Source: an uncultured Actinomycetes bacterium (lineage in GTDB: Bacteria; Actinomycetota; UBA4738; JBBDTT01). Taken from it: DNA of 64,000 bases. Where the stretch lies: positions 192,001 through 256,000 of the forward strand of contig CAVUMN010000001.1 of assembly GCA_963742735.1 (NCBI GenBank), read 5' to 3'. Each line of letters starts with the position of its first letter. The stretch's first letter is position 1. The position numbers and the translations under genes were made by a program. The notes below the pieces were generated by a model. That model saw only the letters and a program-made list of their open reading frames with translations, was not told the DNA's origin and searched no databases. Below are positions 12,235 through 16,549 of the stretch, in pieces.

Positions 12235-13424
12235 ATGCGCATCCTCATCCTGGGCGGAGACGGCTACCTGGGCTGGCCGACCGCCATGCACTTCTCGGCC
12301 AAGGGCCATGAGGTGCTGACGATCGACAACTACCTCCGCCGGCGGGCCCACACCGAGGCCGGCAGCGACTCCCTGACGCCGATCCTGGGCTCGCTTCCCG
12401 CCCGCGCGGACGCATGGAAGGAGATCTCCGGCAAGGAGATCGGGGTGGTCGAGGGCGACCTGACCGACTGGCCCACCACCGAGCGCCTGTTCAGGGACTT
12501 CCAGCCGGAGACGATCATGCACTACGGCGCAGATGCCCTCCGCGCCGTGGTCGATGATCAGCCGCGAGCACGCCGTGTTCACGCAGTTCAACAACGTGAT
12601 CAACACGCTGAACGTGCTCTACGCGATGCGCGACATCACCCCCGACGCCCACCTGGTGAAGCTGGGCACCATGGGCGAGTACGGAACGCCCGAACATCGA
12701 CATCGAGGAGGGCTACATCACGATCGAGCACAACGGGCGGTCGGACACCCTGCCCTACCCGAAGCTCCCCCACTCGATGTACCACCTGTCGAAGGTGCAC
12801 GACTCCCACAACATGCACTTCGCCTCGCGCGTATGGGGCGCCCGCACCACCGACCTCAACCAGGGCGTCGTGTACGGCATCCACACCGACCAGACGCAGA
12901 TGGACGAGCGCCTGATGAACCGCTTCGACTACGACGAGTCCTTCGGGACCGCGCTGAACCGGTTCACCCTCCAGGCCGTGATCGGCCACCCGCTGACGGT
13001 CTACGGCAAGGGCCTCCAGACCCGCGGGTACCTCAACATCCTCGACACCATCCAGTGCATCGAGCTGGCCATCAACAACCCGGCCGACGCGGGCGAGATG
13101 CGCGTGTACAACCAGTTCACCGAGCAGTTCACGCTGATGGAGCTCGCCGAGCTGGTCCAGAAGGCCGGCACCGAGTACGGGCTCGAGGTCACGATCGACC
13201 ACATCCCGAACCCGCGGACGGAGAAGGAAGAGCACTACTACAACGCCAAGCACACCAAGCTGCTCGACCTCGGGCTGAAGCCGCACTACCTCTCGGAGAC
13301 GCTCGTCGAGTCGATGTTCGGGGTGATCGAGAAGTACCGGGGCCGGGTGAAGCGAGACCACATCCTCCCGCGCATCTCGTGGACGTCGGGGCTGCGCGAG
13401 CCGGTCGCCGCGGACCTCTCCTAG
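12235..13424 (+). pseudogene. sqdB: UDP-sulfoquinovose synthase (SqdB/Agl3/SQD1 family), interrupted by two +1 frameshifts (possibly sequencing errors)
   Basis: Pieces in three successive frames: MRILILGGDGYLGWPTAMHFS...HYG / MPSAPWSM...[14 protein letters not shown] / [37 protein letters not shown]...[10 protein letters not shown]...[14 protein letters not shown]...NQFTEQF...[11 protein letters not shown]. Removing one base at ~12530 and one at ~12690 gives a 395-aa ORF. RBS AAAGGA. Confidence 0.88.
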
Positions 13425-13445
13425 GGACCGGCTCGAGGGACGCCC

Positions 13446-14492
13446 GTGCTCGCACTCCGGATCATCGCCGGGGTCGCCGCCGTCGCGCTGATCGCGTTCG
13501 TGACGCGCGGCTACGTCCGCCGCACGGTCAGCCGCCTCAACCTGATCCTCACGTGGGTGGTGGGCCTAGGGGCGCTGGCGATGGCCGTGGCGCCCTCGGC
13601 GTTCAACTGGCTCTTCAACCTGTTCAACCTCGAGGCCGGCGGCGGCCGGCGCATGATCGGCGCGCTGTTCCTGGCGGTGCTCGTCCTGCTGTTCGCGGTG
13701 TTCCGCGCCCTCGCCCAGGCCGACGCGAACGAGCGCTCCCTGCGCCTGTTGGTCGAGGGCCTCACCGTCAACTCCTTCGACTGGTCACAGACGAAGAAGC
13801 TCCCGAAGGGTGAGCGGATCGTCGTGGCGATGCCCGCCCACAACGAGGCCGAGAACATCGCCGCGGTGATCCGGGCCATCCCCGATTCGGTGGAGGGCCT
13901 TCGGGTCGTCACGGTGGTCGTCGACGACGCCAGCGAGGACGACACGGCCGAGGTCGCCGAGGCGGCGGGGGCGTATGTGGCCCACCTGCCCATCCAACGG
14001 GGCCAGGGCATGGCCCAGCGAGTCGGCTACGAGATCGGGCTGAAGCTCGGGGCGCGCGTGGTGGTGACCCTGGACTCCGACGGGCAGCACGACCCCGGGG
14101 AGATGCATCTGCTGGTCAAGCCGGTCCTGGCCGACGAGGCCGACATGATCCAGGGCTCGCGCATGCTCGGGGAGTTCGAGAAGGAGTCGCGGTTGCGCCA
14201 CGCCGGCGTGCTGTTCTTCTCCCGCCTGGTCTCGGTGATCACGGGAACGCGGATCACCGACGTGTCGAGCGGCTACCGGGCCATCCGCGCGGACATCCTG
14301 AAGCACCTGGTCCTGGAGCAGGACCAGTTCTCCTCGTCCGAGGTGCTCGTGGAGGGCCTGCGCCAGCACGCCCGCATCAGGGAGGTCCCGATCACGATCC
14401 GGGCCCGGGCCAGCGGCGAGTCCAAGAAGCCGAAGAACCTTCGCTACGGCTGGAACTTCACCAAGGTCATCATCAAGACCTGGCTCCGTTGA
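13446..14492 (+). CDS. DUF2304 membrane domain fused to a GT2 DPM-synthase-like polyprenyl-phosphate glycosyltransferase
   Basis: N-terminal 3-TM domain ending [11 protein letters not shown], then [58 protein letters not shown]. Confidence 0.85.
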
Positions 14493-16549
14493 GCCTCGGG
14501 GCCCTCGCCGGCGTCCTGCTCCTGCTGCTGATCCCGGGGCTCCCGGCGTCGCTCGCCCTCCACCCGCCGGGCCGGATCTCCGTCGTCTCGCGGCTCGCCC
14601 TGGCGCCGGTGTTGGGGGCGGCGCTGGCCGGCGCGGTCGCGTTCCTCCTCGCCCTGCCGGGGTGGCTGTGGCCGGCGCCGTTCCTCGTCCTCGTCGGCGC
14701 CGCCTCGGTGGGGCTGACGGTGTGGGTGGCGCGCCGGGACGGGCTCCGGGCCCACGCCCGGGCCGCGATCAGCGAGACCCGGGCCGACCCCGGGCCCATC
14801 GTGCTGGGGCTCGTGGTCCTCGCCGGGATCGCCGTCGTGCGGCTGTCGTTCGATGCCCGGATCCACTTCTCGGCCGCCTCGGCGTGGCGGTACTGGGCGG
14901 ACGCGGTGGAGATGGCGGACGCCGGAGGGTTCCCCCGGACCACGCTGCAGTACGGCCTGCCGCTCGTCCCGACGGTGAGCAAGGGGTTCCTCAACGCGCT
15001 CAACGCCGGTATGGCCCACGCGATCGGGCGCGAGGCGCTCCCGGCCCTCGGGGCGCTGCTGTGGGTGGGCTCGGTGGGGTTGGCGGGAGCGCTGTGGGCC
15101 CTCGGACGGGAGATCGGACTGCGGTGGACGGCGCCGCTCCTCCCGCTGCTCGTGGTGGTCAACCGCGAGTTCCTGAACCCCGAGATCACCGCCGATCTGG
15201 ACGCGTACCGCGCCGAGACGTTCGGACGCATGCTCGCGTTCGGTGGGCTGGTGCTGGTCGTCCGGGCCCTCCGCGATCGGAGTGGGTGGACCGACGCCGT
15301 GGCCGGCGGCGGGCTGGTCGGCGTCGCCATCGGGATGCATCTGGTTCCGGCGATCGTGGCCGGGATCATCGCGGCCGGGTTCGCTGTGGGCTCACTGATC
15401 CGCGATCCGGCGCGGCGCGCAGCGCTGGTCCGTGGCCTGGCCGCGGGCGGCGTGGCCGTCGCCGTGGCGGGCGCGATCGTCCTGCTTCCCAGGGGTGACG
15501 TCGGGCTCTCAGGGGTTCGTGGCGATCAGGCGTTCGACCGGTTCGGCCCGGCGTTCGATCCCACGCTGTTCGTGAACGCGGGGGTGACCCCCGAGCGGCA
15601 GGCCGCCGAGGGCCCTCGCGACTGGAGGCTCTCCGCCGGCGAGGCCTACCGGGCGTTCGTCGCGACCTCGATCGGCGAGCCGTCCGGGCAGGGCCTGCGC
15701 CCGGCCGAGCCGCCGGAGTCGGTGGGACCGATTGGGGTGTCGATGGCCCTGCTCGGCGTGGTCCTCGCGGCGCTCGGGTTGGCCTGGTTGCCGAGGACCC
15801 TCCGGCCGGCCGCGGTGATTCCCCTGGTCCTGGGGGCGGGGCTGGTGAGCCTCACCTGGTGGTTCTCCCGGCGCTCGAGCCTGTTCATCCCGGCGAACTT
15901 CGGGCTCCGCCGTCTCTACGACTACTCCGCGCTCCCGCTGATCCTCGGCGGGCTCGCGGCGCTCGAGGTCGTGGTGGTGGCCGCGGGCAAGCTTCGCCGC
16001 TGGGCAACCGCCGCGGTGACGGTCGTGCTCGTCCTCGGCCTGTCCGCCTGGCTGCTGCCGGACGCGCGGCTCCGGCCGAGCCGGATCGCGGCCGTGGAGC
16101 CCGTGATCGAGGGGATGCGATGGGTGAACGAGCATCTCCCGTGCGGCGCGTTCATCCTTTCGAACCAACACACGGAGGGCTTCTTCCAGGCGGCGCTCGG
16201 CCGGCCGGCTTTCCTGGAGGGCGCGACCCCGTACCTGCGTCCGGTGGTGCTCGAGGAGGCCATCGACCGCTTCCTCGAGGCGCGGGCGTTCTTCATGGCG
16301 CCGAGCCGGGCGACGTTCCCGGCGCGCAACCTCACGCACGTGGTCGTGATCCGCGGCGGTGGGATCGGCTACTCCGCGACGACCGGCCAGACCGACATCG
16401 CGGCCCTCGACCGGCTGGGCTTCCTGAGGCTGGAGCGCGCGGACGACGCCGTCCGCGTCTACACGGTGACGCTCGCCGGCGCGGGCCAACCTCCCTGGTA
16501 CCCGGGCCGATACCCCGGTTACCACTGCGACCGGAGCCGGTCCCTCTAG
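14489..16549 (+). CDS. Polytopic membrane protein, putative GT-C glycosyltransferase
   Basis: 686 aa with many TM segments and a soluble C-terminal domain. TTGA overlap (translational coupling) with the GT2 gene. Confidence 0.6.
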   Translation: MSLGALAGVLLLLLIPGLPASLALHPPGRISVVSRLALAPVLGAALAGAVAFLLALPGWLWPAPFLVLVGAASVGLTVWVARRDGLRAHARAAISETRADPGPIVLGLVVLAGIAVVRLSFDARIHFSAASAWRYWADAVEMADAGGFPRTTLQYGLPLVPTVSKGFLNALNAGMAHAIGREALPALGALLWVGSVGLAGALWALGREIGLRWTAPLLPLLVVVNREFLNPEITADLDAYRAETFGRMLAFGGLVLVVRALRDRSGWTDAVAGGGLVGVAIGMHLVPAIVAGIIAAGFAVGSLIRDPARRAALVRGLAAGGVAVAVAGAIVLLPRGDVGLSGVRGDQAFDRFGPAFDPTLFVNAGVTPERQAAEGPRDWRLSAGEAYRAFVATSIGEPSGQGLRPAEPPESVGPIGVSMALLGVVLAALGLAWLPRTLRPAAVIPLVLGAGLVSLTWWFSRRSSLFIPANFGLRRLYDYSALPLILGGLAALEVVVVAAGKLRRWATAAVTVVLVLGLSAWLLPDARLRPSRIAAVEPVIEGMRWVNEHLPCGAFILSNQHTEGFFQAALGRPAFLEGATPYLRPVVLEEAIDRFLEARAFFMAPSRATFPARNLTHVVVIRGGGIGYSATTGQTDIAALDRLGFLRLERADDAVRVYTVTLAGAGQPPWYPGRYPGYHCDRSRSL

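Follow-up and report, generated by a model that had tools for sequence, protein, structure and literature searches.

Introduction

The three-component glycosylation systems GacI/GacJ/GacL of Streptococcus pyogenes, GtrA/GtrB/GtrX and CsbB/YfhO share a logic of synthase, DUF2304 activator and extracytoplasmic glycosyltransferase of the GT-C type. Likewise, the PpgS (Rv3631)/Rv3632 pair of Mycobacterium tuberculosis combines a DPM1-like glycosyltransferase of family GT2 with a DUF2304 membrane protein; Rv3779, a polytopic transferase, uses the lipid-linked sugar, and the system adds galactosamine to arabinogalactan via polyprenyl-phosphate-GalNAc. PpgS and GtrB, like dolichyl-phosphate-mannose (Dol-P-Man) synthase (DPMS), ArnC and AglJ, load a sugar onto polyprenyl phosphate, and we know of no DUF2304 partner described other than alongside a polyprenyl-phosphate-sugar synthase. 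Here we analyze a 64,000-nt stretch of DNA from an uncultured Actinomycetes bacterium (GenBank assembly GCA_963742735.1, contig CAVUMN010000001.1, positions 192,001 to 256,000; hereafter, the window), in which sqdB, the gene for a UDP-sulfoquinovose synthase, is followed by a gene encoding a fusion of DUF2304 to a GT2 domain.

The first enzyme of this locus is shared with the pathway for sulfoquinovosyl diacylglycerol (SQDG), which consists of SQD1/SqdB together with SQD2/SqdX or SqdD; its longest readable piece is ~70% identical to SQD1. The partner enzyme differs, being an inverting GT2 of the polyprenyl-phosphate class here and a retaining GT4 or GT8 there. To our knowledge, sulfoquinovose (SQ) outside SQDG has been found in no more than a few N-glycans of archaea. 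The Agl3 system of Sulfolobus acidocaldarius, which is archaeal, has SQ in a surface glycan, not in SQDG, and NCBIfam model NF041015 matches the sqdB of the window. The Sulfolobus N-glycan is built on a dolichol-linked oligosaccharide, and our literature searches found no intermediate of the Dol-P-SQ type. A review gives SQ as β-linked in the Sulfolobus N-glycan and as α-linked elsewhere (PMC11407970); in the system considered here, two inversions, by the GT2 and then by a GT-C enzyme, would give an α linkage.

The locus also departs from the three-component systems in several respects. Compared with PpgS, the second-best NCBIfam match of its GT2, it joins DUF2304 and the GT2 in one protein, has sqdB as the linked nucleotide-sugar gene and so implies a sulfonate as the sugar; the score lies far below the PpgS cut-off (83 against 370 bits), and no Rv3779-like partner was identified. 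YfhO-like genes are present in the window, a likeness to the three-component systems, whereas the donor sugar would differ from that of the Gac, Gtr and CsbB/YfhO systems, no GtrA was found and the accompanying membrane proteins vary by lineage (PMT_2, c4/DUF6541-like, c28 or YfhO-like). The best structural-sequence relatives of the GT2, DPMS (PDB 5mlz) and ArnC, align at profile positions 121-328 and likewise have a GT-A fold with a DxD motif, but they carry C-terminal membrane helices and use GDP-Man and UDP-Ara4FN, respectively, whereas the GT2 of the window is anchored by its N-terminal DUF2304. By analogy with these systems, the sugar implied here would be new for a three-component glycosylation system. 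A preliminary description of the locus, made from the sequence alone, knew of no account of such a pathway in bacteria, and in keeping with this we found no report of bacterial polyprenyl-phosphate-SQ, or of sqdB with DUF2304, in the openly accessible full-text literature.

Results

An SQD1-type UDP-sulfoquinovose synthase precedes a DUF2304-GT2 fusion

The genes under study lie on the forward strand, as follows.

12235-13424, + strand: sqdB, SQD1-type UDP-sulfoquinovose synthase (three colinear NF041015 matches, SQD1 alignment)
13446-14492, + strand: DUF2304-GT2 fusion, 348 aa, predicted polyprenyl-phosphate sulfoquinovosyltransferase (Pfam, PDB profile matches, sqdB linkage)
14489-16549, + strand: 686-aa polytopic membrane protein of family c28, candidate extracytoplasmic glycosyltransferase (overlap with the GT2 stop codon, hydropathy)

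This anatomy, with a 21-bp gap between the first two genes and an overlap between the second and third, had been given in the preliminary description and was borne out by the sequence. sqdB runs from an ATG at 12235 to a TAG at 13422-13424. The 21-nt spacer that follows contains GAGGGA, which resembles a Shine-Dalgarno sequence, and the fusion gene starts with GTG at 13446; its TGA stop codon (14490-14492) overlaps the TTG (14489-14491) that starts the 686-aa open reading frame (ORF). The DNA is high in G+C (65-77% per 1-kb step), and the source genome comprises 3.08 Mb in five contigs and is 88.9% complete. Scans of 11900-16800 for promoters and terminators returned chance-level matches only.

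sqdB can be read only in three frames (12235-12525, 12533-12691 and 12693-13421), for reasons considered below, and its identity was established piece by piece. All three pieces matched NF041015, a model of 384 positions, and did so colinearly, at positions 1-96, 100-151 and 152-383. Their scores of 86, 76.5 and 274 bits give a rough sum of 436, compared with an equivalog cut-off of 575; only 1 of 14 control genomes passed this cut-off, so the model is narrow. Against Arabidopsis SQD1 (PDB 1qrr), piece 2 aligned with residues 102-152 (E = 6.8e-18) and piece 3 with residues 153-383 (E = 6e-105, ~70% identity), so that the two join on SQD1 without a gap. GGDGYLG at residues 7-13 of the window's protein fits the N-terminal GxxGxxG NAD site, and the SQD1 stretches that hold T145 and Y182-H183-x-x-K186 (YHLSK) are identical in the two proteins. 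T145, Y182, H183 and K186 are residues that we take, from the SQD1 structure papers, to be those of the catalytic site. In the HMM comparison that had been proposed for SqdB, every piece matches NF041015, and piece 3 is SQD1-like. The gene is single copy in the source genome. A second sqdB-like copy, 53% identical and with a TGA within the match, was seen in a relative (G007:C31:15996-16715).

The protein encoded downstream combines DUF2304 (Pfam PF10066) at residues 4-104 (29.7 bits, cut-off 25.5) with Glycos_transf_2 at residues 127-288 (62.5 bits). By hydropathy, its N-terminus forms three hydrophobic, presumably transmembrane, helices (1-19, 31-49 and 71-89). Across 31 aligned orthologues, 55 columns are invariant, among them those of the D210-x-D212 motif. 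The best NCBIfam matches were AglJ (4e-30), PpgS (2e-23) and a haloarchaeal Dol-P-hexose transferase (5e-22), and a profile built from the 31 orthologues retrieved from PDB the Pyrococcus Dol-P-Man synthase 5mlz (3e-23), ArnC (1e-14) and GtrB (4e-5). According to one study, the DUF2304 protein GacJ activates GacI, its homologue in mycobacteria, Rv3632, has a stimulating effect on PpgS, and fusions of DUF2304 with GacI occur naturally in Geobacter and other genera (10.1101/180810). The architecture of the window's protein fits a self-anchored polyprenyl-phosphate-sugar synthase with a cytoplasmic DPM1-like GT-A domain.

The pairing of sqdB with the GT2 fusion is conserved

We followed the pairing in three sets of genomes: 41 genomes of the window's order, in which 33 loci were mapped for gene synteny; one genome for each of 185,579 species, scanned with the GT2 profile, the best 80 loci being analyzed; and an evenly drawn sample of 301 Actinomycetota genomes, searched at E ≤ 1e-50 for sqdB and E ≤ 1e-35 for the GT2. 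Within the order, 39 of the 41 genomes carried sqdB, and the fusion gene adjoined it in 38 of these 39. The adjacent pairs were in tandem on one contig in 36 genomes; in G022 the pair straddles a contig break, and in G007 the GT2 copy beside sqdB is 38% identical and has the opposite orientation. In the one remaining genome, G033, sqdB sits at a contig end. The two genomes that lack sqdB, G006 and G010, were also without a GT2 orthologue and contained distant GT2 paralogues only.

At least 568 relatives of the fusion were recovered in the species-wide scan. The best 80 loci came from uncultured Actinomycetota and from Solirubrobacterales, Gaiellales or other Thermoleophilia, and in 71 of them sqdB lay within 6 kb of the GT2 gene. 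Seven of the nine loci without a nearby sqdB have an upstream flank that ends at a contig end; the other two, L109 and L132, have a complete upstream flank and no sqdB there. By gene call, the arrangement was tandem in 29 loci and divergent in 41.

The phylum sample gave a concordant picture, with sqdB in 80 genomes and the GT2 in 75: 71 genomes carried both genes and 217 neither, 9 had only sqdB and 4 only the GT2. Three of the four genomes with the GT2 alone had weak matches to the catalytic domain alone; G196 had a full-length match and no sqdB at the threshold used. In 45 of the 71 co-carrying genomes the two genes were no more than 10 kb apart on one contig, and this was so for 22/22 genomes of the window's own order, 13/18 of group f19, 3/4 of f14, 2/2 of f46, 1/1 of f15, 1/1 of f48 and 3/20 of f9, and for none of the three from f35 and f62 together. 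The pair thus occurs in three gene arrangements and in many families, which belong to two or more classes of Actinomycetota. The neighborhood survey proposed in the preliminary description was therefore strongly positive for the sqdB-GT2 linkage (38 of 39 in the order, 71 of 80 species-wide, 71 co-occurrences), and the linkage, whose loss in relatives would have spoken against that description, is conserved. The identities of the two genes, the domain architecture of the fusion, the linkage and the co-occurrence are established by these results. Two side observations concern f9: contig C3 of G316 holds the separated sqdB and GT2 at 378 kb and 1556 kb (L149, L150), and some f9 genomes carry a second sqdB, 47-51% identical, which adjoins the GT2 gene in G152 and G239.

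A SqdB tree of 101 rows, built by a quick method under LG+G4 with the window represented by piece 3 alone, separated a clade of 52 tandem-linked rows (support 98) from a clade of 38 divergent-linked rows (support 99). GT4-linked, f9 and Pseudonocardia rows were unplaceable, and gene calls outside 375-430 aa were left out (truncated and frameshifted genes and also L145 and L147). The tree is consistent with long vertical retention of the sqdB-GT2 pair.

The two frameshifts in sqdB are probably artifacts

sqdB contains two +1 shifts, each caused by one extra C, the first near 12530 and the second in the run at 12688-12693. Both are probably assembly errors, because a public contig lacks the insertions, the assembly is rich in indels and sqdB shows no other sign of decay. 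When contigs from four public soil-metagenome runs were aligned to the sqdB region, one (X2 record 11) was found to span 12447-12733 (287 nt) with 3 mismatches, ~99% identity and neither extra C. Frame-switch junctions were counted with a heuristic based on third-position G+C, which is of our own design and unvalidated. It called 155 junctions in the 3.08-Mb source assembly, or ~1 per 20 kb, and a single one in the 506 kb of sequence from relatives' loci, a ~25-fold difference in density per base; the species-wide loci gave 26 junctions in 900 kb, concentrated in 11 loci. The source assembly is indel-rich, and two junctions per 64 kb correspond to its background rate. The restored sqdB frame has no stops and keeps the catalytic residues, the ORF at 12777-13424 inside piece 3 has a third-position G+C of 0.99, and piece 3 (88% identical to the same-genus orthologue) is no more diverged than the intact GT2 (86%).

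The contrary view is that sqdB is a real, recent pseudogene, the pathway being dead in this strain and the locus a relic, which could hold together with any of the other explanations considered below. It draws on the presence of two frameshifts within a single 1.2-kb gene, on the absence of a second sqdB from the genome and on a comparison of ~25 window genes with relatives' proteins, which found frame switches in sqdB alone and so counts against an artifact. Set beside the contig without insertions, the background rate of junctions, the open frame and the undiminished conservation, it seems to us improbable. A true pseudogene had been named in the preliminary description as fatal to its proposal; given the contig and the indel rate of the assembly, that outcome is unlikely, and what probability it keeps belongs to a recent inactivation. 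The richness in indels may also account for a completeness of 88.9% despite only five contigs. A frameshifted GT2 fusion was seen elsewhere, at ~8740-9810 of L056 (from G036, a two-contig genome), where residues 1-305 and 300-348 lie in different frames.

Other possible users of UDP-SQ

No gene of SqdX or SqdD type lies beside the sqdB of the window. The SqdD-type GT8 from the sqdB operon of S. meliloti, a query used without a positive control genome, had no match in the source genome. Two f19 genomes without the GT2 fusion have a GT4 gene directly after sqdB (G065, L144 at 4950-7254; G232, L145 at 6080-8166), and from its position we infer that this GT4 is SqdX-like, as in the classical sqdB-sqdX arrangement. 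Used as a query in the window's order, the GT4 of G065 retrieved only generic GT4s of 31-38% identity, equally in the two genomes that lack sqdB. Judged by these two queries in incomplete genomes, one negative and the other finding generic GT4s only, the order seems to have neither of the known kinds of SQDG synthase.

Two observations on related loci may be added. In f19, the GT2 fusion and the GT4 beside sqdB seem to replace each other. On a mobilizable plasmid of Pseudonocardia autotrophica (NZ_AP018921.1; L140, 4210-6696), a 59%-identical sqdB is divergent from a gene for a 416-aa GT2 that also matches Glyco_transf_21 and so belongs to another class than the DUF2304 fusion; with murJ and a GNAT gene alongside, this may be another noncanonical use of UDP-SQ.

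Candidate extracytoplasmic transferases

The 686-aa protein encoded after the GT2 had been labeled GT-C-like, and this label could not be confirmed. The protein matched no Pfam or NCBIfam family at its cut-off, and a profile of its family, c28, gave chance matches only (E ~0.5) against PDB sequences. In hhalign comparisons, c28 and PMT_2 reached probabilities of 0.6% and 8.7%, which shows no homology; the values for c28 against c4 (44% and 51%) and for c4 against PMT_2 (0.2%) are likewise not significant. Members of c28 gave sub-threshold matches to DUF6798 (10/45), DUF6541 (4/45), Dpy19 (3/45) and PTPS_related (2/18), families that we take to be GT-C-like, and these matches hint at a GT-C protein. 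Crude hydropathy indicated ~10-12 hydrophobic segments (13 windows, several of them overlapping) and a C-terminal tail of ~160 aa (163), a profile compatible with the GT-C fold without demonstrating it. The c28 alignment has invariant K165, E243, H284, D357, C552 and C680 and a nearly invariant D138, both cysteines lying in the C-terminal tail. The family has 634 representatives at E ≤ 1e-3 in a library of 1.84 billion proteins; the 150 listed matches are without exception unnamed, close members of the family, and homologue P0001 is 75% identical to the window's protein.

In 13 of the 33 mapped loci of the order, the GT2 gene is followed by a co-directional gene for a large polytopic protein of family c4 or c28, directly in 9 and past a β-helix gene in 4. 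Between the GT2 and c4 genes of L041, L045, L049, L052 and L057, all of one family, the intervening gene encodes a right-handed β-helix (NosD-like) protein of 346-353 aa. A different arrangement was seen in the 41 divergent loci, which are of Solirubrobacterales type: 28 of them have one or two genes of a ~460-aa PMT_2 cluster between sqdB and the GT2 gene, on the GT2 strand, and the two representatives of this cluster that we scored reached 43 and 56 bits against a Pfam cut-off of 26. PMT_2 is a GT-C family of the ArnT/PMT type that uses polyprenyl-phosphate sugars. The three-component scheme would thereby gain independent support from PMT_2 genes in the GT2 operon of Solirubrobacterales, as judged from family membership. 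In the source genome, PMT_2 genes occur elsewhere (contig C4) and none lies in the window, where the membrane proteins linked to the GT2 are either unclassified or YfhO-like.

Flanking genes

Upstream of sqdB, on the opposite strand, is a polysaccharide gene cluster, and downstream of the GT2 operon a block of ~15 kb precedes thiE.

3659-12055, - strand: polysaccharide cluster of Wzz/Wzy type, divergent from sqdB (Pfam, NCBIfam); its members are a WecA-like phosphotransferase of GT family 4, a GT4, a polysaccharide deacetylase, a 459-aa membrane protein, a GNAT protein, a second GT4, and Wzz with a tyrosine autokinase
16546-31937: ~15-kb block between the GT2 operon and thiE (gene calls, Pfam, synteny maps)
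16546-18870 and 21533-23818, - strand: YfhO-like proteins (YfhO C-terminal Pfam match of 34.9 bits for one and 22.5 bits, below the cut-off, for the other)
18867-21536, - strand: 889-aa membrane protein
23821-25767, + strand: 648-aa membrane protein
25760-27487 and 29874-31937, + strand: c4/DUF6541-like proteins
27484-28938, - strand: sulfatase (Sulfatase + SGSH_C, arylsulfatase-like; Pfam), between the two c4 genes
28920-29879, - strand: NAD epimerase/dehydratase (Pfam Epimerase)

The two upstream GT4 genes (4624-5787 and 9033-10169) matched generic GT4 models only, and the gene families of this cluster stand beside sqdB in 7-9 of the 33 order loci. From 14489 to 31937 the window encodes seven large polytopic proteins of 686, 774, 889, 761, 648, 575 and 687 aa. 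A sulfatase is unable to cleave the C-S bond of SQ. In most relatives the thi genes follow the GT2 immediately, with no ~15-kb block in between; arrays like that of the window (c4, c26, c54, c28) are also found close to the pair in G018, G026 and G034. The 33 order loci are flanked by housekeeping genes, with a dnaE2-like gene and a cysteine desulfurase gene upstream and thiE/G/H/S and a PASTA kinase gene downstream.

Discussion

With moderate confidence, and by analogy with its relatives, we propose that the GT2 fusion is a polyprenyl-phosphate-SQ synthase that feeds extracytoplasmic sulfoquinovosylation. SqdB would convert UDP-glucose and sulfite to UDP-α-SQ. Anchored in the membrane by the three-helix, GacJ/Rv3632-like DUF2304 domain to which it is fused, the GT2 would move SQ with inversion onto polyprenyl monophosphate at the cytoplasmic face, giving polyprenyl-phosphate-β-SQ. 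The lipid-linked SQ would then be flipped across the membrane, and polytopic glycosyltransferases at the outer face would use it to decorate a wall glycan, a lipoglycan or a protein. Likely candidates for these transferases are, in Solirubrobacterales, the two PMT_2 proteins of the same operon and, in the window's order, one or more of the downstream membrane proteins (c4/DUF6541-like, c28 or YfhO-like). We infer the donor, the carrier lipid, the inversion, the flipping, the acceptor and the identity of the transferring membrane protein.

Several observations weigh against this proposal. The GT2 lies outside every named equivalog, scoring below all cut-offs (AglJ, 105 versus 325 bits; PpgS, 83 versus 370; ArnC, 37 versus 529), and because of this its donor and acceptor are assigned by analogy and gene linkage. 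All 20 f9 genomes have both genes, which lie apart in 17, by 1.18 Mb in G316. Kinship among the genomes makes the co-occurrence counts nonindependent, so that they overstate the support, and some of the genomes are unpublished (G006, G014, G027, G030, G031 and G039 of the order set; G041, G057, G085, G152, G202, G252 and G264 of the phylum sample, all f9), among them G006, one of only two cases of co-absence. No match to the GtrA flippase (PF04138) was found in the source genome, which is 88.9% complete; GtrA was found in 8 of 14 control genomes. The third component is variable: c28 occurs in 10 of the 41 genomes of the order, and it adjoins the GT2 gene only in the window and a same-genus genome and lies 2-14 kb away in three others. 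Family c4 occurs in 41/41 genomes, including both that lack sqdB, so its phyletic pattern is uninformative, and a large membrane protein is missing beside the pair in ~60% of the order's loci. Adjacency of the c28 gene to the GT2 gene, which was part of the operon as the preliminary description drew it, is therefore not a conserved trait. From that interpretation, the tie between a UDP-SQ synthase and a DUF2304-GT2 stands, by the linkage and by the relatives of the GT2; its third component, the 686-aa protein, is not conserved beside the GT2 and could not be assigned to GT-C.

The variability of the third component leaves room for a sulfoglycolipid as the end product, in which case the GT2 would place SQ on diacylglycerol or another glycerolipid, in β linkage, or on polyprenyl phosphate without onward transfer. 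Conservation is limited to the pair, and no family of transferases varies together with it; a neighboring membrane glycosyltransferase is absent from most loci of the order and from 13 of the 41 divergent ones, the pair sits among housekeeping genes (thi, PknB, cysteine desulfurase), and no flippase was found by the GtrA search of the source genome. As a matter of general knowledge, moreover, sqdB serves sulfolipid synthesis in every well-studied bacterium, and the f19 genomes carry either sqdB-GT2 or sqdB-GT4, like alternatives. We nevertheless consider a sulfoglycolipid unlikely. Polyprenyl phosphate is used by all of the nearest characterized relatives of the GT2 catalytic domain (DPMS, ArnC, AglJ, PpgS and GtrB), we know DUF2304 solely as the partner of polyprenyl-phosphate-sugar synthases, and 28 of the 41 Solirubrobacterales-type loci have PMT_2 genes in the same operon; it is also general knowledge that GT2 enzymes invert and that SQDG is α-linked, and a polyprenyl lipid that itself bears phosphate would spare no phosphorus.

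A different explanation would take the GT2 out of SQ metabolism altogether: it would use another donor (UDP-Glc, UDP-GlcNAc or GDP-Man), the linkage would reflect a conserved neighborhood and UDP-SQ would be used by another enzyme. The sub-cut-off equivalog scores, the separation of the genes in 17 of the 20 f9 genomes, the full upstream flanks without sqdB in L109 and L132 and the full-length GT2 of G196, which has no sqdB at E ≤ 1e-50, speak for such an explanation. Yet the linkage outlasts rearrangement, being found in tandem, divergent and divergent-plus-two-PMT_2 arrangements with differing flanks; the two genes co-occur in the phylum sample (71 genomes with both, 9 with sqdB, 4 with the GT2 and 217 with neither, in 301), they are jointly absent from G006 and G010, and the SqdD and SqdX-like queries yielded no orthologue able to use UDP-SQ. 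Another donor is thus very unlikely, more so than a pseudogene in this strain.

The recurrence of the pairing suggests an undescribed route for bringing a sulfonated sugar onto the bacterial cell surface. More tentatively, for we hold this broader claim with somewhat less assurance than the function proposed for the GT2, polyprenyl-phosphate-SQ may be a real bacterial donor, and extracytoplasmic sulfoquinovosylation may be ancient and widespread in nonphototrophic soil Actinomycetota (Thermoleophilia and an uncultured sister order). If so, polyprenyl-phosphate-SQ would be the first lipid-linked sugar donor to carry a sulfonate, the three-component envelope glycosylation systems would gain a sulfonated sugar with a permanent negative charge, and a DUF2304-GT2 family of hundreds of members would acquire a function. 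It would also make abundant uncultured soil Actinomycetota producers of SQ, an uncounted source for the soil sulfur cycle, and would bear on the question of who feeds the widespread SQ degraders of soil.

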